From positions 6,240-70,239 of the forward strand of contig CALNYG010000005.1 in the NCBI GenBank assembly GCA_942490825.1: a DNA stretch of 64,000 nucleotides. The letters are read 5' to 3'. The stretch is from Candidatus Moraniibacteriota bacterium (lineage in GTDB: Bacteria > Patescibacteriota > Minisyncoccia > Moranbacterales > GCA-2747515). The position numbers and the translations under genes are program-made. The notes below the pieces were generated by a model. It was not told the DNA's origin and did no database searches. It saw only the letters and a list, made by a program, of their open reading frames with translations. Positions 5,015 to 62,768 of this stretch are shown one piece after another (positions within the stretch are counted from its first letter, which is position 1; every line of letters starts with the position of its first letter).

Positions 5015-6793
5015 CTATTTATTTCTCTTTGCCTTTACACGATCATTCTCTTTCAATCCCATCTTTCTTAACCGAACACTCTCTGGAGTAACCTCCAAAT
5101 ACTCATCACCAGTCATAACTTCCAAACCTTTCTCAATATTAATCGTAATGGGAGGAGTCAAATTAATAGCCTCATCAGTTCCACTAGATCGCATATTAGT
5201 CAATTGTTTACCCTTAATAGGATTAACCGTCATTTCATCACCTTTAGAAGTATTACCAATAACCTGACCTTCATAAACCTGAGTACTCGCTCCAATGTAC
5301 AAAGCACCTCGGTTTTGCAAATTATACAAAGCAAAGCCTAAAGCTTTTCCAGTCTCACCAGAAATCATAGAACCAGCTGCACGTCTCACAACATCACCAG
5401 CATACGGACGGAACTCAATAAATCGACTAGACAAAATTCCCATTCCCTTAGTATCAACAATGAATTCATTTCGATAACCTAAAACACCTCGAGTTGGAAT
5501 TTCAAAAGTCATTCTAACACCATCATTCTCATGTTGCATATTAGTCATAATACCTTTACGCTTTCCTAACTTTTCAATAATCGCTCCTGAAAATTCTTCT
5601 GGCACAGAAATAATCATTTCCTCAAACGGCTCTTGTTTCTTTCCGTCAACTTCTTTAATGATAACTCGTGGCTGAGAAACTTGAATTTCAAAACCTTCAC
5701 GACGCATGTTCTCTAAAAGAACCGCAACATGCAACTCCCCACGACCATAAACTGTAAAATTAGCTCCTGTGAAATCAACTTTCAAACCAACGTTAACCTC
5801 TAACTCTTTTTCTAAACGCTCACGAATTTGTTCTCGAGTAACAAATTTTCCCTCTTTTCCAGCAAACGGTGAATCGTTAACTAAGAATTCCAAAGCAATT
5901 GTCGGCTCATCAACAGTAATATTTGGCAATAATTCTGCATTCTCATCAGCACAAACAGTTTCTCCAATGTCAATATCATCAATACCAGCAATCAACACAA
6001 TATCACCTGCTTCAGCCTGTTCAACTTCTTTTCGAGCTGTACCTTCAAAAACAAAAATTTTAATAATTTTCTTATTTCTATCTTCTTTACCTTCTGATTT
6101 AACAATAACATTTCCAATTTTAAGCGTACCTTCATAAATACGAGCTACAGCCAAACGTCCTAAAAAGTCATCATAAGCTAAACTAAAAGGCTGTAATCTC
6201 AAAGGAGCTTCAGTATCACTTTTAGCAGGTTCAACATGATCAATAATCTGATCAAGTAATGGCGTCATGTCTTCACTATCATCTTCTGGTTTTTTCTTGG
6301 CAATTCCATCTCTACCGATTGAATAAATTATAGGAAAATCTAGCTGTTCATCATTAGCACCTAAATCTAAAAATAATTCATAAATTTCTTCCTCAACTTC
6401 ACCCAATCTAGAAGCAGGTTTATCAATTTTATTAATCACAACCAAAGGTTTATGACCAATTTCTAAAGATTTTTTCAACACAAAACGAGTCTGTGGCATT
6501 GGACCTTCTTGGGCATCAACTACCAACATAACACTATCAATTGAACGCAAAACACGTTCCACCTCTGAACCGAAATCAGCATGTCCTGGAGTATCCACGA
6601 TGTTAATTTTTGTATCTTTATAAAAAACAACTGTATTCTTTGCGTAAATTGTAATTCCACGTTCTTTCTCAATATCGTCATTATCCATGCTTTCATCTGC
6701 ACCTTTTGCTCCAGTTTGTTGCATGATTGCATCTGTAATAGTTGTCTTACCATGATCAACGTGAGCGATGATCGCTATATTTCGTATTTCCAT
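5015..6793 (-). CDS. typA: Translational GTPase TypA/BipA
   Basis: 592 aa. G1 [10 protein letters not shown]3 DTPGHADF, G4 NKID, and EF-G-like domains through to the C-terminus. Confidence 0.95.
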
Positions 6794-6842: not shown

Positions 6843-7025
6843 TTTTAGACTATATATTTTGATTTTGTACAAATAAATTCTTTAAAAAATATTGCTAGTT
6901 TTAAAAAAGTTATATTTTAAAAATCAAAATTTGTCTAAAAAATTAAACATAAATAAAAAACCGCAACACCTGCGATTTATTTATAATAGCTTAAAGGCTA
7001 AAGAAAGTCAATCGTTTTTGGCTCT

Positions 7026-7847
7026 TTAACATCTTTGGGCAACTAAATTTAAGAAAATTGTCATCGGAAGAATACAAAATAATAATCTTTTACAAAAACG
7101 TTCAACATTTCTAATCCCAAAATGATTCCTTTTAATTCTTTCAAAATGATTATGAATTCCTTCAGTATAAGCATTAGTTGTTTTAGATAAATAATAATTT
7201 AATATTTCATCAAACCATCTTGTTAATGTATTAGCCAAATCTTTCATATATTTTGATTCTGAAGTTTTGCAAAGACTGATGACATATTTTAATTGTTTTT
7301 GGGCTTCTTTTCTATTACTTTTCCAATATACTTTTCTGAGTTGATGAATTATTTTCCAACTTTGTTTTAACTTAGGAACTTTAACAAAAACTTTTTCTAA
7401 TTTATTAAATTCTTCAATTGTTAATTTGTGTGTAGGTATCATCAGTAATTTATTTATTTTATAAGATTCATTGTTGATGTCTTGAAAAACTTTCTTTTGT
7501 TCTTTTAATAAAAAGACAGCCCACTGAATTATATGAAAATGATCAATCACAATAACCGCATTAGGAAAACATTCTTTAATAATAGCTGGAAAAAAAGAGT
7601 CCATATCAATACATACTTCTTTAACTGCTAATCTAAATTTTAAATCAATTTTTAATAATTCTTTCAGCAATTCTTTTTGTGATAAATTTGGTAGAACACC
7701 TATCACCTCATTATCAATTAAATTAGTAATGTTAAAAACTTGTTTTCTTTTGCTAACTCCTTTGCCATCCATTCCAATTCTTTGAATAGATTTATCCCAA
7801 ATTAATGAAGTATTTACCATTTCATCAATCATTCTCAGAGCCGACAT
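7026..7847 (-). CDS. ISL3 transposase, DDE catalytic part (orfB)
   Basis: GMDGKG...CIDMDSFF...VIVIDHFHIIQ...TNAYTEGIHNHFERIKRNHFGIRNVERF matches the ISL3 DDE_Tnp pattern. Confidence 0.85.
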   Translation of the reverse strand: MSALRMIDEMVNTSLIWDKSIQRIGMDGKGVSKRKQVFNITNLIDNEVIGVLPNLSQKELLKELLKIDLKFRLAVKEVCIDMDSFFPAIIKECFPNAVIVIDHFHIIQWAVFLLKEQKKVFQDINNESYKINKLLMIPTHKLTIEEFNKLEKVFVKVPKLKQSWKIIHQLRKVYWKSNRKEAQKQLKYVISLCKTSESKYMKDLANTLTRWFDEILNYYLSKTTNAYTEGIHNHFERIKRNHFGIRNVERFCKRLLFCILPMTIFLNLVAQRC

Positions 7848-7900
7848 AATGCTTATCTGTCTAGATCTAGCTAGTCCGCTATATGTGGTTTCTCTTAATT

Positions 7901-8221
7901 CTATGACAGAGTTTTTTTAAAAGCTGTGCTCATTTGTTGCCCTTTTTTAACTTGAGGTAAAGATTCCCAAAGTTTCTTTTTATGTTTAGAAAAATAAAAT
8001 CTTCTTTGAGTAATAGCTATAAAAACTTTTTTATTTTCAAACATAGAATGAGCAATTATTCTATTTCTTTTTTGATTAATTTTTTTACTTACCTCATTTT
8101 TTAATTTAAATGAATTCTTTTGTAAATGACAATGTAAAATTATTTTATCATTTTTTTCTTCAAATTTATCTAAAATATATCCTTCTAAATTGAATATTTT
8201 TTTAATCTCTTTTTTTTGCAT
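7901..8221 (-). CDS. ISL3 transposase, N-terminal part (orfA)
   Basis: 106 aa. It ends at a T4A7 run, and orfB is open in the -1 frame from that run. Confidence 0.75.
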   Translation of the reverse strand: MQKKEIKKIFNLEGYILDKFEEKNDKIILHCHLQKNSFKLKNEVSKKINQKRNRIIAHSMFENKKVFIAITQRRFYFSKHKKKLWESLPQVKKGQQMSTAFKKTLS

Positions 8222-8389
8222 TTTTAAAATATTAAATTATTAAAATAACTTAATATTTAAGCATAGAATTTAACAAATTTCAATACTTAGCTTTGCCCAA
8301 AGATGTTAAAGAGCCGAAAAATCCAAAAACTCAACCCCAAAACAACCCCAATCCAAACAAAAAATAAAAAACACCCCATCAAAATAACA

Positions 8390-8417
8390 TTGACATCAGC
8401 AAAAGCAAGAGTATAAT
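8390..8417 (+). promoter_or_regulatory. Sigma70-type promoter for the sugar genes
   Basis: TTGACA (8390-8395), a 16-nt spacer, then TATAAT (8412-8417), about 30 nt before the ATG at 8448. Confidence 0.55.
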
Positions 8418-8447
8418 TATAGCTGGTAATTCCCACACAATAAAATC

Positions 8448-9338
8448 ATGAATTCAAATAAAAAAATAGTAGCAATCGGAGAAATCTTATGGGACATTTT
8501 CCCAAATAAAAAACACTTAGGTGGCGCGCCGTTCAATTTCGCTTATCATTGCAAACAATTAGGTTTAGATCCAGTAGTCATCAGCGCCATTGGCGAAGAC
8601 AAATTAGGAAATGAAATAATTAAAAATGTTAAAAAAGCGAATCTTGATGATAAATTTATAGAGAGAATAAATTTTCCAACAGGAACAGTCCAAGTCTCTT
8701 TAAGTAATGGTCAGCCAGAGTATGAAATTTTAGAAAATGTTGCTTGGGATAATATTGGCTTTAAAGAAGAATTCGAAGAATTGGCAAAAAACACAGGAGT
8801 AGTTTGTTTTGGAAGTTTAGCTAGTCGTTCGTTTAATAAAACCAGTAAAACAGTTGAAAAATTTCTCAAATTACTTTCTAATGATACTATAAAGATATTT
8901 GATATTAATTTAAGACAACATTACTATTCAAAAGAATTGATTGAAAAATTTTTAAAGTTATCAGATGTTCTAAAAATTAATGACGAAGAGATTGAAATTG
9001 TAGTAGACTTATTTGGATGGAAAGAGTTAGATGAAGACGAATTGTTAAATAAATTTTACAAAGAGTTTGATCTTAATCTAATTATTTTAACTAAGGGAAA
9101 TAAAGGCAGTGTACTTTTTGACAGGGAAAACAAGAGTGAACAATCAGCATTAAAAGTGGAAAATTTTGCAGATGCAGTTGGGGCAGGAGATTCTTTTACA
9201 GCAACGGTTGCCTATGGTTTAATTAATGATTGGGATTTAGAAAAAATAAATATAGTTGCTAATAAAGTTGCGGCAATAGTTTGTTCTAACGCTGGAGGAA
9301 CTCCAGAATTAAGTAATATCAAAGAAATTTTACAATAA
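8448..9338 (+). CDS. PfkB-family sugar kinase (fructokinase-like)
   Basis: 296 aa. N-terminal GEILWD...GGAPFNFA and C-terminal DAVGAGDSFTA, NAGG motifs typical of the ribokinase/PfkB family. Confidence 0.8.
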   Translation: MNSNKKIVAIGEILWDIFPNKKHLGGAPFNFAYHCKQLGLDPVVISAIGEDKLGNEIIKNVKKANLDDKFIERINFPTGTVQVSLSNGQPEYEILENVAWDNIGFKEEFEELAKNTGVVCFGSLASRSFNKTSKTVEKFLKLLSNDTIKIFDINLRQHYYSKELIEKFLKLSDVLKINDEEIEIVVDLFGWKELDEDELLNKFYKEFDLNLIILTKGNKGSVLFDRENKSEQSALKVENFADAVGAGDSFTATVAYGLINDWDLEKINIVANKVAAIVCSNAGGTPELSNIKEILQ

Positions 9339-9530
9339 AAATAGACTAGAATAGTATAAATTTAAGACTATGAATTTTACAATAAAGACAATCAAAATTA
9401 ATTCGATTAACAAGCTCTTGTTTAAAAAGAAGGCTTTGTGATTTTTATTTAGATGAATGTTGCAAAGTCCTTTATAATTTAGAGGACTTTTTATTTTAGC
9501 ATGATATAATTTAAGAATAACTTTAAAAAT

Positions 9531-11069
9531 ATGAAAATAGAAAATAAAATACAATTAATAACTTATCCAGATAGTTTGGGTAAAAATTTAAAAGATTTAG
9601 ATTACGTTTTAGGTAAATATTTAAAAGATGCAATTGGTGGTGTACATTTATTACCTTATTATCCTTCATCAGGAGATAGGGGTTTTGCACCTTTGACGCA
9701 TAAAGAGGTTTCTCCAGAATTTGGAACTTGGGAAGATGTAAAAAAAATCTCATCTAAATATACTCTAATGAGTGATTTAATGGTAAATCATGTTTCTTCT
9801 AAATCTGAGTATGTTCAAGATTATTTAGAAAAAGGATCAAAGTCAAAATATGCAGAATTTTTTGTAACGAGTGAAAAATTTTCTCGGAGATTTTTACCGC
9901 ATAGAAAAAGTACCTCACCTTTATTAAAAAAAATTGAAACTTTTATAAACAATCTGAGACGTTGGGACAAAATTTTCCATATTGAAGGTATAAATAGATT
10001 CGATGCTAAAAAACTTTATCGACCACGACCGAAGAGTCCATTGAAACCATTTGTCTTTACAGATGGCAATATTAAACATTTGTGGTGTTCTTTTACAAAA
10101 GATCAAGTAGATTTAGATGTGATGAATCCAGATGTCAAAAGACTTTTAGTTGAATATATTGAAACTTTAGCAAAAAATGGAACAAAAATTTTACGAGTTG
10201 ATGCGGCAGGTTATACGGTAAAGAAAAGAGGGACGAGTAGCTTTATGATTCCAGAAACATATAGATTCATTAGTTGGTTAGGTGAAATTGCACATAAAAA
10301 TGATATTTCAATGTTATTAGAAATTCATGGACATTACAAACAACAAATTAAACTAGCAGAAACTGAAAATGTTGATTATGTTTACGACTTCCAAATTCCA
10401 CTTTTAGCAATTCACGCTATTTATAATAAAAGAACCGACTTAATTAAAAAGTGGATTGAAGTTCGCCCGAATAATGCAATCGTTGTTTTTGACACACACG
10501 ATGGCTTGCCCGTTGTTGATTTAGAAGAATTGCTTTCGGAGGTAGAGCTGAATAAATTAAAAAGTGATATTCTAAAACATGGCGGAAATGAAGCTCTTCG
10601 TGCTTCAGGTTCTAATTCCAAAAATGTCGATACATATCAAATAAATTGTACATATTATTCTGCTTTAGATGAAAATGATGATTCTTATATTGTAACGCGA
10701 GCGATTCAAATTTTTCTTCCAGGCATTCCGCAAATTTATTATGATGGTTTGTTGGCGGGCGTAAATGATGTTGCAAAATTAAATAAAACTGGAATTGGAA
10801 GAGATATTTTAAGACGAGATTATGATTTAAAAATGATTGAAAAAGCTTTTGAAAAAGGAGTTGTTAAAAGATTATTAAAGTTAATGAAGTTTCGAAATAA
10901 TCATCTAGCATTTAATGGTAAATTTTCTTTGTTAGATTCTTCTCATTCCACATTGAAAATGCGTTGGGAAAATGGTGCTGATTTTTGTGAGGCTGATATT
11001 GATTTAAAAAAATATAAAGTTGAGATTCATTATTCAACCGAAGAAGGGAGAATAATTGAAGTTTTATAG
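9531..11069 (+). CDS. Sucrose phosphorylase-type GH13 glucosyl phosphorylase
   Basis: 512 aa. The N-terminus QLITYPDSLG...LPYYPSSGDRGFAPLTHKEVSPEFGTWEDV...DLMVNHVS and the RVDAAGY and HD regions match the sucrose phosphorylase subfamily. Confidence 0.8.
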   Translation: MKIENKIQLITYPDSLGKNLKDLDYVLGKYLKDAIGGVHLLPYYPSSGDRGFAPLTHKEVSPEFGTWEDVKKISSKYTLMSDLMVNHVSSKSEYVQDYLEKGSKSKYAEFFVTSEKFSRRFLPHRKSTSPLLKKIETFINNLRRWDKIFHIEGINRFDAKKLYRPRPKSPLKPFVFTDGNIKHLWCSFTKDQVDLDVMNPDVKRLLVEYIETLAKNGTKILRVDAAGYTVKKRGTSSFMIPETYRFISWLGEIAHKNDISMLLEIHGHYKQQIKLAETENVDYVYDFQIPLLAIHAIYNKRTDLIKKWIEVRPNNAIVVFDTHDGLPVVDLEELLSEVELNKLKSDILKHGGNEALRASGSNSKNVDTYQINCTYYSALDENDDSYIVTRAIQIFLPGIPQIYYDGLLAGVNDVAKLNKTGIGRDILRRDYDLKMIEKAFEKGVVKRLLKLMKFRNNHLAFNGKFSLLDSSHSTLKMRWENGADFCEADIDLKKYKVEIHYSTEEGRIIEVL

Positions 11070-11781
11070 TCTGTATTTTAAGACTTGAAATTTAGTTTCG
11101 ATTAACTTTAAAATAATCACTTTTAAATAAATTATCACTGTCTAAGGTGAAAATAATATCCTTTCTAAATAAATATTCCTTGATTATCATTTTAAATGAT
11201 TAGACCTCTTTGGAAGTCATGCCTATGTCATTTTGATTGGAACATAACAAAACAAAAAAATCTCAAAGTTCTAGTATAATCTTAAGCTTTTAAGATTTCT
11301 CCACTCCATATTTTAAAATCTCGTTTAAAAATATTCCAGTTCAGATGGTATAATACCATTTCCAAATAACTATTACTCATTTAAATATTTTTAATGTTAG
11401 ATTTTAAATATATTAGAAAGCGAAATTAATTTATTTAATGGGTAGCGGTTAATTTAAAAAGGTATAATTTAAAGTTTCCGAAGATGTCTATTAATATTTA
11501 TGCAATTTGTATCACGAATAAATATTTAAAAATGAGAGGAAATTAATTGAAAATCGTATAATTTATTTATAAAACAGGATTATTTTTCAGTTTGTTGATA
11601 ATTTAAATTTATCAAAGACAGTCATTCACGGTCAATTAATTCAATAAAATTAGTTCTAAAACAAGTATCAGACAGAATAAAAAACGAGGCTCTTTAACAT
11701 CTTTGGGCAAAGCTAAGTATTGAAATTTGTTAAATTCTATGCTTAAATATTAAGTTATTTTAATAATTTAATATTTTAAAA

Positions 11782-12102
11782 ATGCAAAAAAAAGAGATTA
11801 AAAAAATATTCAATTTAGAAGGATATATTTTAGATAAATTTGAAGAAAAAAATGATAAAATAATTTTACATTGTCATTTACAAAAGAATTCATTTAAATT
11901 AAAAAATGAGGTAAGTAAAAAAATTAATCAAAAAAGAAATAGAATAATTGCTCATTCTATGTTTGAAAATAAAAAAGTTTTTATAGCTATTACTCAAAGA
12001 AGATTTTATTTTTCTAAACATAAAAAGAAACTTTGGGAATCTTTACCTCAAGTTAAAAAAGGGCAACAAATGAGCACAGCTTTTAAAAAAACTCTGTCAT
12101 AG
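11782..12102 (+). CDS. ISL3 transposase orfA (copy 2)
   Basis: The protein is identical to orfA of copies 1 and 3. The A7 run lies at 12085-12091. Confidence 0.75.
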   Translation: MQKKEIKKIFNLEGYILDKFEEKNDKIILHCHLQKNSFKLKNEVSKKINQKRNRIIAHSMFENKKVFIAITQRRFYFSKHKKKLWESLPQVKKGQQMSTAFKKTLS

Positions 12103-12155
12103 AATTAAGAGAAACCACATATAGCGGACTAGCTAGATCTAGACAGATAAGCATT

Positions 12156-12977
12156 ATGTCGGCTCTGAGAATGATTGATGAAATGGTAAATACTTCATTA
12201 ATTTGGGATAAATCTATTCAAAGAATTGGAATGGATGGCAAAGGAGTTAGCAAAAGAAAACAAGTTTTTAACATTACTAATTTAATTGATAATGAGGTGA
12301 TAGGTGTTCTACCAAATTTATCACAAAAAGAATTGCTGAAAGAATTATTAAAAATTGATTTAAAATTTAGATTAGCAGTTAAAGAAGTATGTATTGATAT
12401 GGACTCTTTTTTTCCAGCTATTATTAAAGAATGTTTTCCTAATGCGGTTATTGTGATTGATCATTTTCATGTAATTCAGTGGGCTGTCTTTTTATTAAAA
12501 GAACAAAAGAAAGTTTTTCAAGACATCAACAATGAATCTTATAAAATAAATAAATTACTGATGATACCTACACACAAATTAACAATTGAAGAATTTAATA
12601 AATTAGAAAAAGTTTTTGTTAAAGTTCCTAAGTTAAAACAAAGTTGGAAAATAATTCATCAACTCAGAAAAGTATATTGGAAAAATAACAGAAAAGAAGC
12701 TCAAAAACAATTAAAATATGTCATCAGTCTTTGTAAAACTTCAGAATCAAAATATATGAAAGATTTAGCTAATACATTAACAAGATGGTTTGATGAAATA
12801 TTAAATTATTATTTATCTAAAACAACTAATGCTTATACTAAAGGAATTCATAATCATTTTGAAAGAATTAAAAGGAATCATTTTGGGATTAGGAATGTTG
12901 AACGTTTTTGTAAAAGATTATTATTTTGTATTCTTCCGATGACAATTTTCTTAAATTTAGTTGCCCAAAGATGTTAA
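12156..12977 (+). CDS. ISL3 transposase orfB (copy 2), with a TKG variant of the TEG motif
   Basis: Same as copies 1 and 3 except HFHV for HFHI, and AAA (Lys) at 12840-12842 where copies 1 and 3 encode Glu in NAYTEGIHN. Confidence 0.8.
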   Translation: MSALRMIDEMVNTSLIWDKSIQRIGMDGKGVSKRKQVFNITNLIDNEVIGVLPNLSQKELLKELLKIDLKFRLAVKEVCIDMDSFFPAIIKECFPNAVIVIDHFHVIQWAVFLLKEQKKVFQDINNESYKINKLLMIPTHKLTIEEFNKLEKVFVKVPKLKQSWKIIHQLRKVYWKNNRKEAQKQLKYVISLCKTSESKYMKDLANTLTRWFDEILNYYLSKTTNAYTKGIHNHFERIKRNHFGIRNVERFCKRLLFCILPMTIFLNLVAQRC

Positions 12978-13073
12978 AGAGCCGATTTTTCTTGACTTTT
13001 TTGGGTTTTGGTGATATTTTTTATTTAGATTAGAATTGTTCATTTATATTAAAATTCAATAGGAGGATTTGGT

Positions 13074-13526
13074 GTGAATCTGACAAAAAAAGAATCCAGA
13101 ATGAAAAAAGAACTTCTTAGAAGAACTTTTATATTTCTGGATAAGACTAATAATGTTAAGTGTCATCTAAAGGAAAATCCTGAAGATATTTTTCAACTGA
13201 TATTAACGTCCGCCAGAAGAGAATTCCCCGCTTTTATCATTAAGCGTAGTCAGTTCAAACAACTTTATTATAATTTTTACTCTACTCTATTGATTGACTC
13301 GAACACTTTTAGAAAAAGAAGGTGTTTGCTTAAGTTCAGAGAAATAAGAATAAAAGGTATAAAGTATAAGCTGAGTGAAATAAAAGGTAGTTCCTGGTTA
13401 CTCGCAACTAATCTCAAGAATCCAGAAAAAACAAAGACTATCAAGCCTCGTGAATTTTTTCTGGTATTGAAGGGTAATGCGAGTAAAAGAAATAAGTATC
13501 CTCGTTTTTCAAGGAGGTCTCGATGA
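13074..13526 (+). CDS. Basic 150-aa hypothetical protein in a foreign-looking insert
   Basis: AGGAGG (13061-13066) lies 7 nt before a GTG start. The protein is K/R-rich with no family recognised. Its TGA stop overlaps the next ATG. Confidence 0.5.
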   Translation: MNLTKKESRMKKELLRRTFIFLDKTNNVKCHLKENPEDIFQLILTSARREFPAFIIKRSQFKQLYYNFYSTLLIDSNTFRKRRCLLKFREIRIKGIKYKLSEIKGSSWLLATNLKNPEKTKTIKPREFFLVLKGNASKRNKYPRFSRRSR

Positions 13527-13690: not shown

Positions 13691-13735
13691 GCCCTATTGC
13701 ATGTTATGCGACGGGGCTTTTTTATTTTTTGTTTG
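13691..13735 (+). terminator. Plus-strand intrinsic terminator closing the insert
   Basis: GCCC...GGGC outer stem with an inner TGCAT/ATGC pairing, followed by TTTTTTATTTTTT. No T-run follows the hairpin on the minus strand. Confidence 0.5.
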
Positions 13736-14762
13736 GATTGGGGTTGTTTTGGGGTTGTTTTGGTTGAGGGTTATTTTTTTTGACCTTATTTACTAAAACT
13801 ATAAAAAGATATAGAACTAAAATCGAATTCTTTAAATTTAAATCATTCATAGTTGAATATCCATGGGCTATCTTATGTCTCAACTTAACGCCTAGCTGAG
13901 AAAAAAATGTAAATTTGATTTGTTCACAAAAATTTTCTCCCCAAACTTTTCGAACGCTGTCATCATCAAAAAATCTTTCATTTAAAGTTATGTCTCGCAT
14001 CCATATATTATTACCTTTACCCTTCTGATTTCCTGTTGCAATAGTATTTATATCTAAACCTAGGCCTTGATTTAAGTCTAAAAAAACTTTTTCAAATTTT
14101 GGAACTAAAATATGCAAAAAAGAAACAAAATCTTCATTGAAAAATCTATTTAAAGCAATTTTTAAAATTTCTAAAAATTCCCCAGTAAAAATTTCTTTTG
14201 AATCAAAATAATCAACTAAACATATTTCATTTAATTTATTATCTTTTTTCATCTTATCAAAAATTGGATATAGATAAAAAATTAGAACAATATCTTGATT
14301 AAAAGTATAATTTGTATTAAACCAACTTAAATCATAATCATCTCCTGATTGTACAATATTTCCTTGATCATCATAAGTTGATGAATTAGCTAGTTCACGA
14401 ATTACCGATCTAGTATTTTTACAAATTCCTTTAACATTTTTAAAATTTGGACAAAATAAAAACTCATTTCTGCCTATCTCATCTAAAACATTAGAAATTT
14501 CATCCATTTCTAAAATAAAATTTATTTCTTTTAAGATTTTATCCGTTGGAATTTTAATATCAAAAGAAAGTTCAGAAAATCCTTTCATTGTATCAACATT
14601 CATTTTTCTAATCTTACTCTTACAAAAAATCTTATCTTTTTTACCACCCTTATTTTCATTTAACTTTTTTAAAACTTCTTGATATTCAATAGATGCCTCC
14701 CAAAACTTTTTTTCATTTTCAAATTCTTTGGCTTTATCAAAAATTTTATTTTTATTACTCAT
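13722..14762 (-). CDS. HEPN-motif protein (DUF4209-like) with a Pro/Asn/Gln-rich tail
   Basis: 346 aa. C-terminal GVKLRHKIAHGYS contains an R-x4-H HEPN motif, and LVPKFEKVF lies upstream of it. The tail is KKNNPQPKQPQNNPNPNKK. Confidence 0.65.
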   Translation of the reverse strand: MSNKNKIFDKAKEFENEKKFWEASIEYQEVLKKLNENKGGKKDKIFCKSKIRKMNVDTMKGFSELSFDIKIPTDKILKEINFILEMDEISNVLDEIGRNEFLFCPNFKNVKGICKNTRSVIRELANSSTYDDQGNIVQSGDDYDLSWFNTNYTFNQDIVLIFYLYPIFDKMKKDNKLNEICLVDYFDSKEIFTGEFLEILKIALNRFFNEDFVSFLHILVPKFEKVFLDLNQGLGLDINTIATGNQKGKGNNIWMRDITLNERFFDDDSVRKVWGENFCEQIKFTFFSQLGVKLRHKIAHGYSTMNDLNLKNSILVLYLFIVLVNKVKKNNPQPKQPQNNPNPNKK

Positions 14763-14841
14763 ATTTCTAAAATTAAAAAATTACCTCCCCACTTTCTGAA
14801 CAAGGAAGCATACTCCCTTGTTCCGTAAAACTTCAATTTCA

Positions 14842-14928
14842 CTAAATAGCCTCCACAATCCCAATCTCCTCCGCACTCAATCCATAAATCCCATAAACCA
14901 AATCATCAATTTTCTCTTCAAAACCCAC
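14842..14928 (-). pseudogene. Relic 3' end of a restriction-modification methyltransferase/endonuclease gene
   Basis: Only 28 codons remain: VGFEEKIDDLVYGIYGLSAEEIGIVEAI then a stop. This is the characteristic C-terminal (D)xLVYxLYGL(T/S)xEEIxIVE tail of type IIG/type I-like MTases. A stop codon sits immediately upstream. Codons are G-ending. Confidence 0.5.
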
Positions 14929-18930: not shown

Positions 18931-19047
18931 ATTCTACATCCAACACAAAATTAAATAAAGCGTTTTAAAAAATTACAAGATAGTTATAATGCTATTTTCA
19001 TCAAATTTTCCTAAAATGTCAATTCTAAAAAGACAAATAAAAGAAAA

Positions 19048-22203
<3,156 letters not shown>

Positions 22204-22629
22204 TCTTTCTTCTACTTGAATTAAAAAAGAATTGACAATTAAGAAAAACTTGATTGCATTTCAATTTCTAATTACGTTATTTTATATTTTTAGATAAATG
22301 AATGAAAATTGCATTATTATACCAAAACTAATCAACTACTCTTATTCTTAAAATAAAGTATAAGAGGTTTTTTAGTAATGGTATTACCTATCTTGTAAAT
22401 TATACTCGAAAATATTTTCCGCAGAAATAAATCTTGAATAAATTCTGTATAACTTACTAACAAATTTTTAAAGTTCGTAATTGTGCGGAAATAATTATTT
22501 TAAATTATTTAAAATAATTATTTACTCACAATTTTTAAGGCAATAAAAAAACAAGGACTTAGCCACTATCCTAGTTTAACTGCTTTTTCTACGAAAGTCA
22601 AATTGAATCTCTCTCAAAGCAATATTACT

Positions 22630-51377: not shown

Positions 51378-52096
51378 TGTTTTGGTTGCTTAATTTTTAA
51401 TTAATTTACTGTTGCTTTTATTTTAGCATATTTTGGCTTGTTTTTTAAGCTGTTTATTTTTGTTTTGATTATTAATGTAAGATTTGGTTATTTTTTAGTT
51501 TTTTAAAAGTGTTTTTTATTCTGCTTTGTGATTGTTTTGGGATTGGGTTGATTGGAAGTTATTTTTTAAATTTTTTATACTTATTTAACTGAGCATCATT
51601 TATCTTTTTAATTAAATCATAAGAGACAACTTTGGGGGATTTTCTTTCAGCAACTTCTTTAACAAAATTTATTTTTCTTTTAAATTCATTTTGATTATTA
51701 TATGAAGCATCCGTCCATTTTTTAAGAACTAACACAAAAGCTCCTTTGCTTATTTTTCTTAAATCTGTAATTGAAATATTTTTAATTTTGCTTTTGTTAT
51801 TTTTTTGAAGTTCTTTAATATTCTCATCAAAATGAGAAACTAACCCTAAACTTTTTGAAGTTCCAAAAAAATGAACTAGATTATTTCTTAAATCTACTAA
51901 ATTTTTCGAACTAAAATTTCTTCTCTTTGGATTGTTTTTTATCCAATCATTATTTTCACATAAACAAAATTCATCAAAAAATAATCTCATTGAATTTTCA
52001 GAAGCATCTCTTAATTTTAATTCATCGCTAGTTTCATTTTTATATGCTGTCCAAAAAGTTCTCAAAATTTCTAATTTTGCAAATAATACAGGCTCT

Positions 52097-52918
52097 TTAA
52101 CATCTTTGGGCAACTAAATTTAAGAAAATTGTCATCGGAAGAATACAAAATAATAATCTTTTACAAAAACGTTCAACATTTCTAATCCCAAAATGATTCC
52201 TTTTAATTCTTTCAAAATGATTATGAATTCCTTCAGTATAAGCATTAGTTGTTTTAGATAAATAATAATTTAATATTTCATCAAACCATCTTGTTAATGT
52301 ATTAGCCAAATCTTTCATATATTTTGATTCTGAAGTTTTACAAAGACTGATGACATATTTTAATTGTTTTTGAGCTTCTTTTCTGTTATTTTTCCAATAT
52401 ACTTTTCTGAGTTGATGAATTATTTTCCAACTTTGTTTTAACTTAGGAACTTTAACAAAAACTTTTTCTAATTTATTAAATTCTTCAATTGTTAATTTGT
52501 GTGTAGGTATCATCAGTAATTTATTTATTTTATAAGATTCATTGTTGATGTCTTGAAAAACTTTCTTTTGTTCTTTTAATAAAAAGACAGCCCACTGAAT
52601 TATATGAAAATGATCAATCACAATAACCGCATTAGGAAAACATTCTTTAATAATAGCTGGAAAAAAAGAGTCCATATCAATACATACTTCTTTAACTGCT
52701 AATCTAAATTTTAAATCAATTTTTAATAATTCTTTCAGCAATTCTTTTTGTGATAAATTTGGTAGAACACCTATCACCTCATTATCAATTAAATTAGTAA
52801 TGTTAAAAACTTGTTTTCTTTTGCTAACTCCTTTGCCATCCATTCCAATTCTTTGAATAGATTTATCCCAAATTAATGAAGTATTTACCATTTCATCAAT
52901 CATTCTCAGAGCCGACAT
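52097..52918 (-). CDS. ISL3 transposase orfB (copy 3)
   Basis: 273 aa with the TEG motif intact. Confidence 0.85.
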   Translation of the reverse strand: MSALRMIDEMVNTSLIWDKSIQRIGMDGKGVSKRKQVFNITNLIDNEVIGVLPNLSQKELLKELLKIDLKFRLAVKEVCIDMDSFFPAIIKECFPNAVIVIDHFHIIQWAVFLLKEQKKVFQDINNESYKINKLLMIPTHKLTIEEFNKLEKVFVKVPKLKQSWKIIHQLRKVYWKNNRKEAQKQLKYVISLCKTSESKYMKDLANTLTRWFDEILNYYLSKTTNAYTEGIHNHFERIKRNHFGIRNVERFCKRLLFCILPMTIFLNLVAQRC

Positions 52919-52971
52919 AATGCTTATCTGTCTAGATCTAGCTAGTCCGCTATATGTGGTTTCTCTTAATT

Positions 52972-53292
52972 CTATGACAGAGTTTTTTTAAAAGCTGTGC
53001 TCATTTGTTGCCCTTTTTTAACTTGAGGTAAAGATTCCCAAAGTTTCTTTTTATGTTTAGAAAAATAAAATCTTCTTTGAGTAATAGCTATAAAAACTTT
53101 TTTATTTTCAAACATAGAATGAGCAATTATTCTATTTCTTTTTTGATTAATTTTTTTACTTACCTCATTTTTTAATTTAAATGAATTCTTTTGTAAATGA
53201 CAATGTAAAATTATTTTATCATTTTTTTCTTCAAATTTATCTAAAATATATCCTTCTAAATTGAATATTTTTTTAATCTCTTTTTTTTGCAT
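52972..53292 (-). CDS. ISL3 transposase orfA (copy 3)
   Basis: Identical 106-aa product. T7 run at 52983-52989. Confidence 0.75.
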   Translation of the reverse strand: MQKKEIKKIFNLEGYILDKFEEKNDKIILHCHLQKNSFKLKNEVSKKINQKRNRIIAHSMFENKKVFIAITQRRFYFSKHKKKLWESLPQVKKGQQMSTAFKKTLS

Positions 53293-53610
53293 TTTTAAAA
53301 TATTAAATTATTAAAATAACTTAATATTTAAGCATAGAATTTAACAAATTTCAATACTTAGCTTTGCCCAAAGATGTTAAAGAGCCATAATACAATAGCA
53401 TAAGATCTCACCGGCAAATTAAACTCTAGTTTTTTACTAATCAAATTTGGATTTTCTGAAGCTTTATAATTAAAATCAATCTTTGCTTCTTTTAATTTAT
53501 TGCTAAGAAATAATGTTAAATCCATCATTTCTAAAAAGCTTTTTCTTAAATCTTCTAGCTGGTTTTGAAAATTTAAAGGGACCCTTCAACAAAGTGTGTC
53601 CATCGCCCAT

Positions 53611-54804
53611 TTAACCTTTCTTAATTTTATTAAAATATTTAAAATTAGAAACAGGATATTTCATATAATTTTTTTCTTCAAACTCCTTAATAACCATAAA
53701 TACATAGTCCAATAATCTTTCGGGAGATTCAAATGATAATTTATTCTTTGTAGTTTTTCTAATTTGCCTATTCAAATTTTCAATTGAATTAGTTGTATAA
53801 ATCATTCTTCTTACTCGAGGATTGAATTTAATATATGTAAAATAATATTCAATTTCTGTAAAATGATTTTTAAAATTTGGATATTTTGTTTTCCATTTTT
53901 CTAAAAAATTATTTACTTTTTTCAAGGCTTTTTCAATTGTATCATTTTCTTCAAAATTATTAAATATTTCTTTTAAATCTTCTCCTATTTCTTTTTTATC
54001 TTTCGGTCTTGTTTTGTTTAAAATATTTCTTTGTTTATGAACTACGCACTTTTGAAATTCTCCTTGGGGATATATTTCTAAAAATACATTTTCTAAATTT
54101 TTTAATCCATCAGCTACAAATAAATCTATTTGTTGAACACCTCTTTCTTCTCTTAAATCTTGCAATAATTCTTTCCAAAATTCTGCTGATTCGGTTGGAT
54201 TTTGACTTAAACAAAGCAATTCTCGTCTATTATCTTCTCTTACTCCAAAAGCAATAAATACACCTTCCTTAGCGTATTCATCACCTCTTCGCACAGTAAT
54301 GAAAATTACATCTCCATAAACAACTTTGTAATGTTTTTCTAATTTGGAATTTTGCCAAGCTATTCTAAATTTATTAAATACTTTTGCTAAATTAGATATC
54401 TTAGCAGGAGACATGTTTTCTTCAAAAATTTCATTTAAAAATTCATTAATGTCATTGGAAGTCATTCCTTTTTTATATAAAGATAAAGCTATTTCATCTA
54501 CTTTTTCTCTGTTAATTTTTAAAAGTTCTAGTGTTGCTGGAGAGAATAATCCTGTTCTAGTTCTTGGAATATGAACAAGTAATGAGTTTTTTGATAATGA
54601 ATTCATAGCTCTTCCGTATGATCCATTTCCTTTATCTTTTTTAGTTTTATTAATATCTTCTAAATACTCATCTCTTTCTATTAGCATTAAGGTTTCTATT
54701 GTTTTTCCTATGAATTTATCCATTGATAAATCTTCTAGATTTTCTCTTAAGTTTTTTATGTTTTTTTCTAATAATTCTTCGGTTCTATTTTTCTTGTCTG
54801 ACAT
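53611..54804 (-). CDS. IS256-family (Mutator-type) transposase
   Basis: 397 aa. YGDVIFITVR...LFVADGLKNLENVF...QKCVVHKQRNILNK...IYTTNSIENLNRQIRK matches the IS256/MULE DDE pattern. Confidence 0.9.
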   Translation of the reverse strand: MSDKKNRTEELLEKNIKNLRENLEDLSMDKFIGKTIETLMLIERDEYLEDINKTKKDKGNGSYGRAMNSLSKNSLLVHIPRTRTGLFSPATLELLKINREKVDEIALSLYKKGMTSNDINEFLNEIFEENMSPAKISNLAKVFNKFRIAWQNSKLEKHYKVVYGDVIFITVRRGDEYAKEGVFIAFGVREDNRRELLCLSQNPTESAEFWKELLQDLREERGVQQIDLFVADGLKNLENVFLEIYPQGEFQKCVVHKQRNILNKTRPKDKKEIGEDLKEIFNNFEENDTIEKALKKVNNFLEKWKTKYPNFKNHFTEIEYYFTYIKFNPRVRRMIYTTNSIENLNRQIRKTTKNKLSFESPERLLDYVFMVIKEFEEKNYMKYPVSNFKYFNKIKKG

Positions 54805-54963
54805 GATTTTATTATTAAATTTATTAATTTAATTTTACTATCAGACACAATTTTGTGAAGGGTCTCAATAATTCTTCGGTTCTATTTTTCTTGTCTGACA
54901 TGATTTTATTATTAAATTTATTAATTTAATTTTACTATCAGACACAATTTTGTGAAGGGTCTC
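54770..54963. repeat. Perfect 97-bp tandem duplication of the IS256 end
   Basis: 54770-54866 and 54867-54963 are identical. Each unit holds the terminal IR plus the first 35 nt of the transposase ORF. Confidence 0.95.
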
Positions 54964-55086: not shown

Positions 55087-58000
55087 CTATTCTTTTTTTT
55101 CTGCTTTTTCTGCCTTTCCGCCACGGAAACCAGTTCCAGCAGGAATAAGCCGACCAATAATCACATTCTCCTTTAGACCTCTCAAACGATCCTCTTTACC
55201 AGTTACAGCTGCATTAATAAGAACCTGAGCAGTCTGCTGGAATGAAGCTGAACTCAAGAATGATTCAGTAGAAAGAGCAACTTTAGTAATACCTAAAATC
55301 ATTTGATCTCCATCAGCCTCTTCACCATCAGTTTTCCCAACCTCATCATTAGCTTCAATAAATTCATCCCTCTCAATAATATCACCAGGTATCAATGTGG
55401 TATCACCCGATTCCACAATTTGAACACGAGATAACATTTGACGGATGATTACTTCAACATGCTTATCATTAATTGCCTCACCTTGAGACGCATAAATTTC
55501 CTGAATTTCTTTAACAATATAACGATGAACACTTTCTCGTCCCATAACACTATAAAGTTTTTTCAAATCAATATGACCATCATTAAGTTGAGATCCTTTT
55601 GTAATCAAATCACCAGTAGCAACCTTAATAGTTGATCCAGCTGAAATGTTATACTCTTTATTCTTAGCTTTCTTGTCAGTCCCTTCAACAATAACTTTAA
55701 TAAATTTACCACCATCATCATGAACATTTACTACTTTTCCATCAAGGTCACTAACAATAGACTCTCCCTTAGGAGGTCGAGCTTCAAAAATTTCTTCAAC
55801 ACGAGGCAAACCTTGTGTAATATCAGAACCAGCTACACCACCAACATGGAAAGTACGCATAGTCAACTGTGTTCCTGGCTCACCAATTGCCTGAGCAGCC
55901 ACTACACCAACTGATTGTCCTAATTCAACTACTCCTCCACGACCTAAATCAATTCCGTAACACTTCTGACAAACTCCTCGCTTAGTCTTACATGTTACAA
56001 TATTTCTTATTTTAATTTTCTTTAATTTAGATTTTTCAATAGCCTTAGATTCTTTGTCACCAATTAATTCACCCTTCTTTACAATCACTTTATCAGTTTT
56101 TGGATGAGTTATGTTTTCAACTGCTACTCGACCTTCAACTCGTAAAGAAAATTCCATACCTATTCGATCAGAATCTTCACGATAAATATACCCACCTTCT
56201 TTGTCTTTACAGTCTTCTTCAATTACAATAATATCTTGAGAAACGTCCACTAAACGTCGAGTCAAATAACCTGCAGTCGCTGTACGCAAAGCTATATCAG
56301 CCATACCCTTACGAGCTCCATGAGTAGAAATGAAATATTCCAATACATCTAACCCTTCTTTATATGAGCTTCTAACTGGTAATTCTAGAGTTTCACCTGT
56401 AGCTCCAGCCATCAAACCTTTCATACCTGTCATCTGTACGATAACTGACTCACTACCTCGAGCTTTAGAATGAGACATTGCGTAAACTGGACCTTCTTTA
56501 TCGATAGACTCCCTAATTGATTCTGTAATTTCTTCCTTAGCATTATTCCAAACTTCAATAGATCGGTTACGTCGCTCTTCGTTAGTAAGCAATCCCATAT
56601 TGTATTGCTCTTTAACTTCTTCAACTTTCTTTTTAGAGCGACTTATTATTTCTCCTTTATTTTCAGGAACAACTAAATCGTCCATTCCCCAACTAATTCC
56701 AGAATGAGTTACACTAGAAAATCCAAGGTCTTTTACTTTATCAATAAAAATAGCTGCCTCATCTTGACCAAATAATTCAATAATTTGAGCAAGAACCTCT
56801 TTCAATTCTTTTTTAGTAAACTCTTCATTAATAAATTGTAATTTTTTAGGTAAAATATCATTGAATAATGCCCGTCCTGCTGAAGTTGTATAAACTTTTT
56901 TATTGTATAAAAGTTTAATTTCAGCATTTACATCGATAACATCATTTTGATAAGCAGAAATTGCCTCATCCATATCAGCGAATAATTTACCCTCTCCTTT
57001 AGCTCCTTTTTTAATATGTGTTATATAATAAACACCTAAAACCAAATCTAAACTTGGAGTAGCAATCGGCTCACCATTAGCAGGCTTTAATAAGTTTTTA
57101 CTTGAAAGCATTAATTCTGCACATTCCTTTCTTGCCTCAGCTGTTAAAGGAACATGAACCGCCATCTGATCACCATCAAAGTCAGCATTAAAAGCTGCAC
57201 AAACCATTGGATGAACCTGAATAGCTTTACCTTCAATAAGAACTGGCTGGAAAGCCTGAATTGACAAACGATGCAAAGTTGGTGCACGATTTAACATTAC
57301 ATAATGATGTGGAATAATGTCATCCAAAATTTCATAAGCTTCTTCAGTTGCTAAATCAACCATTCGTCCAGCTGTACGCACATTATGAGCATACTCTCTT
57401 TCGATTAGTTTATTGATAATAAATGGCTTAAAAAACTCCAATGCCATCTTTTTAGGAATACCAGCTTGATGTAATTTTAGTTGAGGTCCAACCACAATCA
57501 CACTTCGCCCTGAATAATCAACACGTTTTCCTAATAAGTTTTGTCGAAAACGACCCTGTTTTCCCTTTAAGGAATCAGCTAAAGATCGTAATGCTCTCTT
57601 CTGTCCTGTTGAAGCTGCTACTGAAGCTTGTCCTCTTCGTGCACTATTATCAAAAAGTGCATCTACTGCTTCTTGCAACATTCTTTTTTCATTTCGAGCA
57701 ATAACTTCTGGCGCATTTAAACTAATCAATTTTTTCAATCGATTGTTTCGGTTAATAATTCTTCGATAAAGATCGTTTAAGTCAGATGTAGCAAACCTAC
57801 CTCCATCTAAAGCAACCATCGGTCTTAAATCTGGTGGAATAACTGGAATTACTGTTGGAAGCATCCACTCTAATTTCAATTCAGCTTTAACAATTCCTTG
57901 GAAAAATTTTAATCTCTTCAAAGCTTTTTTTCGTTGAATTGAATCCACTTCTTCTAATTCCGCTCGAATACCTTTGATAGTCTTGTCTACATCCATCTCT

Positions 58001-58680
58001 CTAAGAATATCTCTAATTGCTTCTGCTCCAATTCCAGCCTTAAAAGTCTGTCCAAAACTAGTTGATAATTTGAAATATTCTACTTCATTTAAAACTTGGT
58101 ATAAATTAATATTCTTTAAAGAATCTTTTTTGTCTTTATACTGAGCTTTTAATTCTTCAACTGCATCCTCATCCTCATTCTTTTTAAATTCTTTTAGTTT
58201 AGTTTTGTATTCGCTTTCTAAAGTTTCAAGTGCTTGTTTACGTGATTCTACATCAACATCAGTGATAATATAAGATGAAAAATAAATAACCTTTTCTAAA
58301 GCTTGCGGAGACATTCCTAAAGCTAATCCAATCTTACTTGGAATTCCTCGTAAAAACCAAATATGCGAAACTGGAACTGCTAATTCTATATGCCCCATTC
58401 TCTTTCGTCGAACGATGCTTCTAGTCACCTCAACTCCACATTTATCACAAACGATTCCCTTGTATCGAATACGCTTATATTTTCCACAATAACACTCCCA
58501 ATCTTTAGCTGGTCCAAAAATTCTTTCACAGAAAAGACCATCCATTTCGTAACGCTGAGTACGATAATTAATAGTTTCTGGCTTAGTAATTTCTCCATCT
58601 GACCATTTAAGAATAGCTTCTGGGCTAGCCAGTTTTAATCTAACTCTATCGAAATCATTAACTTTTGTTACATTCTCCAT
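55087..58680 (-). CDS. rpoC: DNA-directed RNA polymerase subunit beta'
   Basis: 1197 aa. Zn-finger CYCGKYKRIRYKGIVCDKCGVEV, catalytic NADFDGDQMAVH, and trigger-loop and bridge-helix regions are present. Confidence 0.97.
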   Translation of the reverse strand: MENVTKVNDFDRVRLKLASPEAILKWSDGEITKPETINYRTQRYEMDGLFCERIFGPAKDWECYCGKYKRIRYKGIVCDKCGVEVTRSIVRRKRMGHIELAVPVSHIWFLRGIPSKIGLALGMSPQALEKVIYFSSYIITDVDVESRKQALETLESEYKTKLKEFKKNEDEDAVEELKAQYKDKKDSLKNINLYQVLNEVEYFKLSTSFGQTFKAGIGAEAIRDILREMDVDKTIKGIRAELEEVDSIQRKKALKRLKFFQGIVKAELKLEWMLPTVIPVIPPDLRPMVALDGGRFATSDLNDLYRRIINRNNRLKKLISLNAPEVIARNEKRMLQEAVDALFDNSARRGQASVAASTGQKRALRSLADSLKGKQGRFRQNLLGKRVDYSGRSVIVVGPQLKLHQAGIPKKMALEFFKPFIINKLIEREYAHNVRTAGRMVDLATEEAYEILDDIIPHHYVMLNRAPTLHRLSIQAFQPVLIEGKAIQVHPMVCAAFNADFDGDQMAVHVPLTAEARKECAELMLSSKNLLKPANGEPIATPSLDLVLGVYYITHIKKGAKGEGKLFADMDEAISAYQNDVIDVNAEIKLLYNKKVYTTSAGRALFNDILPKKLQFINEEFTKKELKEVLAQIIELFGQDEAAIFIDKVKDLGFSSVTHSGISWGMDDLVVPENKGEIISRSKKKVEEVKEQYNMGLLTNEERRNRSIEVWNNAKEEITESIRESIDKEGPVYAMSHSKARGSESVIVQMTGMKGLMAGATGETLELPVRSSYKEGLDVLEYFISTHGARKGMADIALRTATAGYLTRRLVDVSQDIIVIEEDCKDKEGGYIYREDSDRIGMEFSLRVEGRVAVENITHPKTDKVIVKKGELIGDKESKAIEKSKLKKIKIRNIVTCKTKRGVCQKCYGIDLGRGGVVELGQSVGVVAAQAIGEPGTQLTMRTFHVGGVAGSDITQGLPRVEEIFEARPPKGESIVSDLDGKVVNVHDDGGKFIKVIVEGTDKKAKNKEYNISAGSTIKVATGDLITKGSQLNDGHIDLKKLYSVMGRESVHRYIVKEIQEIYASQGEAINDKHVEVIIRQMLSRVQIVESGDTTLIPGDIIERDEFIEANDEVGKTDGEEADGDQMILGITKVALSTESFLSSASFQQTAQVLINAAVTGKEDRLRGLKENVIIGRLIPAGTGFRGGKAEKAEKKE

Positions 58681-62758: not shown

Positions 62759-62768
62759 CGAAAATTTT

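Follow-up and report, generated by a model that had tools for sequence, protein, structure and literature searches.

Homologous recombination between inverted IS copies is known to cause inversions, recognisable by exchanged target-site duplications, in Lactococcus lactis (IS905) and, as IS-bounded inversions, in Bordetella, Yersinia and Pseudomonas. Members of the ISL3 family are approximately 1.2–1.5 kb long and carry terminal inverted repeats starting with GGCTCTT (ISfinder description). IS26 and Tn4401 invert DNA by intramolecular replicative transposition "in trans" (He et al. 2015, PMC4471558), and IS30 dimers do so by intramolecular transposition (PMC9333248). [quoted passage not shown] In Enterococcus faecium, an ISL3 element donates an outward-directed −35 hexamer (TTGACA) to neighbouring promoters (PMC13216065).

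The 64-kb stretch of DNA analysed here (referred to below as the window; all coordinates are positions within it) contains three ISL3 and two IS256 copies. The ISL3 copies c1 (7020-8315, − strand), c2 (11688-12983, + strand, i.e. inverted with respect to c1) and c3 (52091-53386, − strand) agree with the family in length (1,296 bp) and in their termini, which are perfect 23-bp inverted repeats (GGCTCTTTAACATCTTTGGGCAA). These termini occur exactly six times in the window, compared with 0 expected. The transposase of c1 was identified as DDE_Tnp_ISL3 (Pfam PF01610, E=3.8e-45, profile positions 1-239 of 240). An exact-protein look-up of the ISL3 transposase returned no match, and a terminal-repeat scan revealed only relatives of 67-75% nucleotide identity.

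In place of the single ORF of ~400 aa usual in ISL3, the transposase is split into two ORFs (106 aa and 273-296 aa; 7901-8221 and 7026-7847 in c1, 11782-12102 and 12156-12977 in c2), with a −1 frame overlap at TTTAAAAAAA. The two-ORF layout is kept in the relatives of 67-75% nucleotide identity, and a conceptual −1 fusion of the c2 ORFs gave a gap-free alignment to the single-ORF homologue P0176 (397 aa). The split transposase is a variant within the ISL3 family and no reason for exclusion from it. An A7 slippery run within the c2 transposase genes (12085-12091) is the putative frameshift site. Judging from these reading frames, the transposase of this ISL3 clade may be produced via a conserved −1 frameshift, a side finding that, like the insertion beside hexamers treated below, is more unusual than the inversion and would matter more if confirmed. 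The candidate slippage region of the transposase mRNA is TTTAAAAAAAC.

Copies c1 and c2 are not bordered by direct repeats. The former lies between tcgttttt (7012-7019) and gaaaaatc (8316-8323), the latter between aaaaacga (11680-11687) and gatttttc (12984-12991); letters and positions are the same as those listed in the first-pass annotation of this DNA. The reverse complement of 7012-7019 is identical to 11680-11687 and that of 8316-8323 to 12984-12991, i.e. the octamers are exchanged between the two copies. Re-inversion of 8316-11687 in silico yielded tcgttttt-IS-tcgttttt and gatttttc-IS-gatttttc. The 8-bp target-site duplications of ISL3 are direct for c3, and for c1 and c2 only after re-inversion. 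In the restored order, tcgttttt (7012-7019) is the left copy of the duplication of one insertion (IS-A), made at the typA promoter, and aaaaacga is its displaced copy; gaaaaatc is the displaced copy and gatttttc (12984-12991) the right copy of the duplication of a second insertion (IS-B). The first-pass annotation had read this pattern as the result of inversion between inverted IS copies, which is supported by the exactness of the swap and by the recovery of both duplications on re-inversion. The required octamers have per-position frequencies of 4.7e-5 and 1.25e-4 in the window (+ strand), and the chance of finding both at two fixed positions is therefore ~6e-9.

Copy c3, a simple insertion interrupting an ORF (52083..53394 with its duplications), provided a control of the 8-bp rule. 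It is bordered by the clean direct duplication already ascribed to it, ATAATACA (52083-52090 and 53387-53394), and excision in silico of c3 together with one ATAATACA restored an open frame of 240 codons spanning the insertion point, which validated the rule in this genome. Related ISL3 elements also generate 8-bp duplications (ATTTTTTT in L075, ACGAAAAA in L056).

The left outer neighbour of the structure is the typA/bipA GTPase gene (5015..6793, − strand; 592-aa ORF, 96% identical to TypA of the sister genome L002). The consensus scan assigned to it a promoter-like site, TTGACT-17-TATTAT (6983..7011, − strand), the TTGACT of which abuts tcgttttt; this site (TTGACTTT) is present in L002 too. 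On the right, a promoter-like sequence TTGACT-17-TATTTT (12992..13020, + strand) abuts gatttttc and faces away from the IS. Downstream of it lies ORF 13074-13526, with AGGAGG as its ribosome-binding site and without a Pfam match, and the right outer neighbour is a DUF4209-like gene (13722..14762, − strand; E=1.4e-4, at the gathering threshold).

We consider it likely that homologous recombination between two independently inserted, inverted ISL3 copies inverted the 3.4-kb segment between them. IS-A would have inserted at the typA promoter, 8 bp upstream of its TTGACT, with tcgttttt as the duplicated octamer. Independently, IS-B would have inserted 8 bp upstream of the oppositely facing TTGACT before ORF 13074-13526, where gatttttc became duplicated. 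The inverted copies would in this way have come to bracket the fructokinase and sucrose phosphorylase genes. Two near-identical inverted copies do bound the segment (arms 7020-8315 and 11688-12983, 99.4% identical), and recombination between them would have flipped the DNA between the crossover points, leaving each IS with one octamer of each original duplication. The event itself and the place of the crossover are what we infer: most simply, the exchange would have occurred in a 783-bp difference-free stretch of ISL3, and the SNP pattern places it most simply outside IS positions 144-513, with no finer placement. The unique segment (8316..11687; 3,372 bp) would then be inverted relative to its state when both IS copies had inserted. 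A 59-bp repeat at its left end (8324..8382, + strand) shares 90% identity with the 3' end of the DUF4209-like gene (13722-14762), where its match is the reverse complement of 13701-13757, and after re-inversion this homology extends ~11-19 nt across the IS-B site. This is a weak hint that positions 8316 and 12992 may once have been contiguous.

An unlikely alternative, although the most probable of the three considered, is that the deposited orientation is an arbitrary assembly choice or one of two co-existing isomers, and that all or most cells carry direct duplications. A unique segment between near-identical inverted repeats can be traversed either way in an assembly graph, and the four junctions between flanks and IS ends are identical in both orientations (the outer flanks join the IS end downstream of the transposase gene, the inner flanks the other end). 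Short reads therefore cannot decide, and this includes the short-read junction mapping proposed in the first-pass annotation; only reads spanning the whole 1.3-kb IS discriminate. Moreover, related IS copies on short metagenome contigs had mismatched flanks, typical of repeat-induced chimeras. Against an assembly choice speaks the structure of the genome assembly, with its few very large, IS-rich contigs (374, 290, 187, 182 and 149 kb; at least 12 transposase variants of this ISL3), which would be hard to obtain without long reads. These contigs suggest that the genome was assembled from long reads, and such reads would span the 6-kb structure. In addition, copy-specific SNPs separated by 369 nt form a phased haplotype that recurs in another copy. 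The locus is probably a flip-flop polymorphism.

Inverted 8-bp repeats on two inverted copies are equally the outcome of a one-step inversion driven by the transposase, which the first-pass annotation did not raise and in which a single ISL3 copy or tandem dimer attacks a target 3.4 kb away on the same molecule. Such an event predicts exactly the observed octamer pattern (PMC4471558), copy-out-paste-in elements can invert DNA via dimer junctions (PMC9333248), and junctions of the type IS tip-8 nt-IS tip (tandem dimer or circle) were found for a related Komeilibacteria element, in contigs L058 and L062. However, the resulting sisters would be born identical, whereas among the three window copies the greatest divergence is that between c1 and c2, with 8 SNPs as against 4 between c1 and c3 and 4 between c2 and c3. 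The independent origin of c1 and c2 was also evident from their transposases, compared by means of protein-level markers. ORF2 of c1 is identical to P0250 and carries N177S, which recurs in P0252 (149-kb contig of the same genome); ORF2 of c2 is identical to P0251 and carries I106V and E229K, which co-occur in P0241 (187-kb contig of the same genome); ORF2 of c3 is identical to P0247 and represents the consensus type. Since the two copies form the most divergent pair and each has markers in common with copies on other contigs, they inserted separately and stem from different IS sub-lineages, which is what the recombination model requires, and are not the sister copies expected of IS26-type or IS-dimer inversion. 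The reviews consulted, furthermore, list ISL3 as presumed copy-out-paste-in and not as a replicative cointegrate element of the Tn3/IS6 type. Taking both sides together, we regard a one-step inversion as highly improbable.

Synteny was analysed by a typA-anchored scan with one genome per species (46 loci). Only L002 was found to have common neighbours, and the other fetched typA loci had no further shared gene. The 3' end of the DUF4209-like gene is conserved beside typA in L002, in the same order and orientation as in the outer flanks here, and the rearrangement is therefore limited to the IS-bounded segment. Between these two genes L002 has neither the sugar genes nor ISL3 copies; the ancestral orientation thus cannot be read from this sole syntenic relative. 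At this spot it contains a different element, an IS200-like/REP-associated transposase gene, and the DNA beside typA forms a variable island rich in IS elements. No genome or contig searched has the un-inverted or IS-free arrangement, and the empty-site A pattern gave 0 matches in JGI metagenomes. The expected IS-free sequences are AAAGTCAATCGTTTTTTATTCTGTCTGA for the IS-A and GGGGTTGAGTTTTTGGATTTTTCTTGACTTTTTTGGG for the IS-B empty site. It is scarcely credible that IS-fructokinase-sucrose phosphorylase-IS arrived as a single mobile unit (a composite transposon), which would explain why L002 has nothing of this unit between its typA and DUF4209-like genes and would agree with the Tn5/Tn10-like architecture of inverted IS copies with matching ends outward: the outer flanks tcgttttt and gatttttc do not form a direct duplication, L002 has its own element in this generally variable region, and each outer octamer pairs with an inner one, which shows that, at the time of the IS insertions, the inner DNA was already contiguous with the chromosome.

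The inverted segment carries genes for a fructokinase-like sugar kinase of the PfkB family (8448..9338, + strand; Pfam PF00294, E=1.7e-37) and a GH13 sucrose phosphorylase (9531..11069, + strand; Pfam PF00128); homologues of the latter in Moranbacteria and other Patescibacteria are annotated as sucrose phosphorylases. An identical fructokinase gene was detected on a 1.5-kb Logan contig of run ERR9669538 (100%, 1,487 bp), which does not reach either junction; a literature search for this run found no paper. The closest sucrose phosphorylase outside this genome (85% identical) is encoded on a 3.6-kb Logan contig where a gene for an MscS channel lies upstream; no fructokinase was called on that side, and the flanks show no homology. 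Exact-protein look-ups of sucP, typA and ORF 13074 returned no match. Longer ORF totals hinted at genetic code 4, which was rejected: the real genes have no in-frame TGA, and the organism, a Candidatus Moraniibacteriota, uses the standard code.

The flip places both sugar genes on the strand that encodes fewer ORFs; of the 37 non-IS ORFs included in the skew test, 28 are on the − strand, to which re-inversion moves both genes. Their third-position GC skew (0.13) is intermediate between that of the − strand genes (0.35) and the + strand genes (−0.02), and the inversion is therefore neither polarised nor dated by GC skew. A consensus promoter, TTGACA-16-TATAAT (8390..8417, + strand; 12/12 consensus matches), precedes the fructokinase gene inside the segment and thus moves with it. 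Because of this, and because each flank still joins the same type of IS end, the inversion was probably neutral for expression.

Of 35 distinct flanks of this ISL3 clade, 11 have TTGAC at an offset of 8 from the IS tip; the only occurrence at another offset was a single one at offset 7. The same IS end faces the hexamer in c1 and c2, and likewise in c3, which lies beside TTGCAA. The mutual inversion of c1 and c2 is accounted for by insertion of the clade beside TTGAC(A/T), as their hexamers are divergently oriented. A broader reading, which we hold to be possible although it falls short of likely, is that the CPR ISL3 clade is a targeted IS, the 8-bp duplication of which abuts TTGAC(A/T), the −35 consensus, so that it parks upstream of promoters without destroying them and produces its transposase by a conserved −1 frameshift. 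Insertion at two outward-facing promoters would then create, within a genome that is streamlined in other respects, an invertible and potentially composite-like mobilisable cassette bracketed by inverted copies, with the inversion as a by-product.

The inversion alone is one more IS-mediated case, of value mainly for annotation, and it gives a traceable reason for the location of the sugar genes on the minority strand. The locus also indicates that at least a dozen active-looking IS copies can be present in a CPR bacterium with a small genome (~1.2 Mb or more) and can undergo recombination with one another. If confirmed, an ISL3 clade that combines insertion beside a −35-like hexamer with a frameshift-controlled transposase would provide a case for the study of target choice in copy-out-paste-in transposition, and hexamer targeting would help to predict where such elements rearrange genomes.

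Compared with the described systems, the inversion is a real, well-supported instance of a known and ordinary type of rearrangement. It resembles the IS905-type inversions in its inverted, near-identical IS copies, its reciprocally swapped direct repeats and their restoration by re-inversion, but differs in the small-genome CPR host, in the size of the segment (only 3.4 kb) and in having no un-inverted relative. IS26/Tn4401 and IS30 generate the same end product, i.e. an inverted segment enclosed by inverted IS copies whose 8-bp repeats are inverted; here, however, the copies are not sisters, and ISL3 has reported circular intermediates, not cointegrate-type replication. As in the composite transposons Tn5 and Tn10, an inverted IS pair brackets a cargo, in this case genes for sucrose use, and mobilisation by the outer ends is possible in principle, although the outer ends here have no common duplication and the evidence indicates that the cargo preceded both IS insertions. 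The E. faecium element belongs to the same family and likewise has a TTGACA-like hexamer at the IS/flank boundary. In that case the hexamer is inside the IS, whereas here it is outside both the IS and the 8-bp duplication, and is therefore part of the target and not of the element.

The window carries three complete copies of a 1,296-bp element, c1 (7020-8315), c2 (11688-12983, in the opposite orientation to c1) and c3 (52091-53386). Perfect 23-bp terminal inverted repeats, GGCTCTTTAACATCTTTGGGCAA, are present at both ends of each copy, and exactly six such termini were detected in the window, against an expectation of zero. The larger transposase ORF contains a full DDE_Tnp_ISL3 domain (E=3.8e-45), which places the element in the ISL3 family of insertion sequences. 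Copy c3 (52083-53394 including the duplications) interrupts an ORF and, as the first-pass annotation had described, is bordered on both sides by an 8-bp direct duplication, ATAATACA. When c3 is excised together with one ATAATACA, an open frame of 240 codons is restored, and the 8-bp rule is thus valid for the element in this genome. The restored frame seems to be truncated near position 53585 by an adjacent IS256-family element. Two inverted copies of the latter (approximately 53578-54868, about 190 bp from c3, and 62767-64000, extending past the window end; Transposase_mut, E=5.7e-71) bracket about 7.9 kb with two very large ORFs (55087-58680 and 58725-62141).

Copies c1 and c2 enclose a segment (8316-11687) whose borders are swapped. 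All four octamers reported in the first-pass annotation were found at exactly the positions assigned to them there: the reverse complement of 7012-7019 is identical to 11680-11687, and that of 8316-8323 to 12984-12991. Re-inversion of 8316-11687 in silico generated tcgttttt-IS-tcgttttt and gatttttc-IS-gatttttc, also as claimed. The octamer swap is real and far beyond chance; given the per-position frequencies of the two required octamers in the window (4.7e-5 and 1.25e-4), the probability of both matching by coincidence is about 6e-9.

The explanation originally put forward for the swap, recombination between the IS copies, is the best supported, since the markers of c1 and c2 differ and re-inversion restores the duplications. 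Two ISL3 elements would have inserted independently, and c1 and c2, lying in inverted orientation, would then have undergone homologous recombination with each other, a course of events that we consider quite probable. The two copies differ from each other at 8 sites and each differs from c3 at only 4; IS positions 250, 283, 295 and 299 are private to c1, and positions 91, 144, 217 and 513 to c2. At the protein level, ORF2 of c1, c2 and c3 exactly matches the transposase variants P0250, P0251 and P0247, respectively, of the 374-kb contig of the source assembly. The non-synonymous c2 markers I106V and E229K co-occur in P0241, encoded by a copy on the 187-kb contig, and the c1 marker N177S recurs in P0252, encoded by a copy on the 149-kb contig, as well as in a fragment from ENA. 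Because the markers of each recur in other copies, the simplest reading is that c1 and c2 belong to different IS sub-lineages with other members and represent separate insertions. The presence of the c2 marker pair (positions 144-513) in another copy means that c2 need not be a recombinant; most simply, the crossover would thus lie outside 144-513, either in the difference-free 783 bp (IS positions 514-1296) or within the initial 90 bp.

The main residual doubt is that the assembler picked the orientation of the segment arbitrarily. None of the four flank/IS-end junctions is altered by an exchange within the IS (in either orientation, the IS end downstream of the transposase gene borders the outer flanks and the opposite end the inner flanks); the orientations can therefore be told apart only by reads or contigs that cross an entire 1.3-kb copy. 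However, the source NCBI assembly consists of very large contigs (including those of 374, 290, 187, 182 and 149 kb), with at least 12 near-identical IS copies in the genome, at least 12 protein variants of the ISL3 transposase and five IS copies in the 64-kb window, and the copy-specific SNPs are coherently phased. We infer that this is a long-read assembly, which would have spanned the 6-kb structure.

A one-step inversion driven by the transposase, through intramolecular replicative transposition or intramolecular attack by an IS dimer, is disfavoured. [quoted passage not shown] On contigs from two samples (L058, 1-110, and L062, 1-75), a related Komeilibacteria ISL3 element shows an IS tip, ACGAAAAA and the other IS tip, preceding a full IS copy with ACGAAAAA as its duplication; judged from its sequence, this is a tandem IS dimer or a circle junction. 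Such a tip-8 nt-tip junction keeps the one-step event mechanistically possible for the ISL3 family, but under such an event c1 and c2 would be sister copies, whereas they carry 8 differences in separate marker sets. Arrival as a composite transposon is ruled out: c1, the segment and c2 share the architecture of Tn5/Tn10-like elements, but the outer octamers differ.

Positions 8324-8382 (59 bp) duplicate, at 90% identity, the 3' end of the DUF4209-like gene (13722-14762, minus strand) beyond c2. After re-inversion, the alignment of this copy with its paralogue continues for 11 bases, 9 of them matching, past the junction of the insertion with the gatttttc duplication, and this homology weakly suggests that positions 8316 and 12992 were formerly contiguous. 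The paralogous stretch (13701-13757) comprises the final ~22 codons of the gene together with sequence downstream of it (~100 nt in a gapped alignment). In the re-inverted arrangement the 59-bp copies are direct repeats ~780 bp apart that bracket the ORF 13074-13526; they could have arisen by partial tandem duplication or through an old integration.

Within the segment, a consensus promoter (8390-8417) and plus-strand genes for a PfkB sugar kinase (8448-9338) and a sucrose phosphorylase (9531-11069) were identified. Of the 37 non-IS ORFs included in a skew test, 28 lie on the minus strand, where re-inversion would also place the sugar genes. Third-position GC skew is 0.35 for minus-strand and -0.02 for plus-strand genes, and the value for the two sugar genes, 0.13 (CI -0.03 to 0.28), falls between these classes. 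The sugar-gene promoter moves with the segment and the flanks keep the same type of IS end; hence, we expect local transcription to be unchanged and the chief effect of the flip to be the coding-strand orientation of the sugar genes. The host lineage, Candidatus Moraniibacteriota, belongs to the CPR/Patescibacteria, and real genes without in-frame TGA indicate the standard genetic code. The 23S rRNA gene (19042-22208), which is followed by 5S, is 3,167 nt long whereas the model has 2,925 nt, so that an insertion or intron is probable; the 64-kb window gave no match to 16S rRNA.

Among 46 typA loci (typA-anchored scan, one genome per species), neighbouring genes are shared with the window only in L002 (JAGLWU010000017.1), whose TypA is 96% identical. 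Homology covers typA (5015-6793, minus strand in the window) and its promoter and ends at window position 7012; beyond this point L002 carries an IS200-like (Y1_Tnp) gene (5393-5953), possibly REP-associated and bracketed by GTAGGGGTTTGCCA(A/G)TGGCAAACCCCTAC palindromes, and then the 3' end of the DUF4209-like gene, whose relative orientation matches that in the window. The collinear outer flanks limit the rearrangement to the IS-bounded segment. The sugar genes and ISL3 copies are absent from L002, so none of the 46 loci shows the ancestral orientation of the sugar genes, and the refuting comparison proposed in the first-pass annotation neither contradicts nor upholds the inversion; the IS-free sequence of the typA-promoter insertion site had no match in JGI metagenomes. 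An MmeI-like restriction-modification gene of L002 has evidently been lost or replaced in the lineage of the window, which retains an 89-bp remnant of its 3' end (14832-14920 versus L002 3892-3980, 81% identical) between the DUF4209-like and PPDK-like genes. The region next to typA is a variable island. The Y1_Tnp element stops 6 nt upstream of the typA TTGACT hexamer, the one beside which c1 sits in the window, which makes this spot a landing place that different mobile elements share. The stretch that separates the typA start from the promoter-like site contains a terminator-like hairpin (6958-6978) with a T-run; this hairpin could serve as a leader or attenuator.

The transposase is split at TTT AAA AAA A (12082-12104 in c2, with equivalents in c1, c3, L050, L051 and L053) into ORF1 (~106 aa) and ORF2 in the -1 frame. 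This layout is kept in relatives of 67-75% nucleotide identity, and a conceptual -1 fusion aligns without gaps with a 397-aa single-ORF homologue (48% identity). The split looks like programmed frameshifting or transcriptional slippage, not decay.

Outward from the IS tip, the outer flanks of c1 and c2 both consist of the 8-bp duplication followed by TTGACTTT. The c1 hexamer is the -35 of the typA promoter (TTGACT-17-TATTAT, conserved in L002), and that of c2 belongs to a TTGACT-17-TATTTT site upstream of the ORF 13074-13526. Of 35 distinct flanks of the IS clade, taken from the window and from contigs of metagenomes and genomes, 11 have TTGAC at offset 8 and one has it at offset 7; all other offsets up to 48 nt lack it, and TTG stands at offset 8 in 5 more flanks (window 7004-7011, 12992-12999 and 52075-52082; loci L050-L053 and L055-L075). 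The motif is found at either IS end, and in c1, c2 and c3 the same end faces the hexamer. The element thus appears to insert with a staggered cut abutting a TTGAC(A/T) hexamer, which suggests sequence-specific insertion beside -35-like hexamers. Insertion next to two hexamers facing away from each other would account for the inverted orientation of c1 and c2 and would create the substrate of the flip.

IS-mediated inversion is a well-known phenomenon, and the window adds one more case, in an unusual host; greater novelty lies in two leads, the target motif and the conserved frameshift. The apparent targeting of TTGAC(A/T) was new to us, and the literature searched revealed only ISL3 elements with an outward -35 inside the IS (PMC13216065). 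In those elements the -35 lies within the IS, whereas in the copies described here the hexamer lies beyond the 8-bp duplication.
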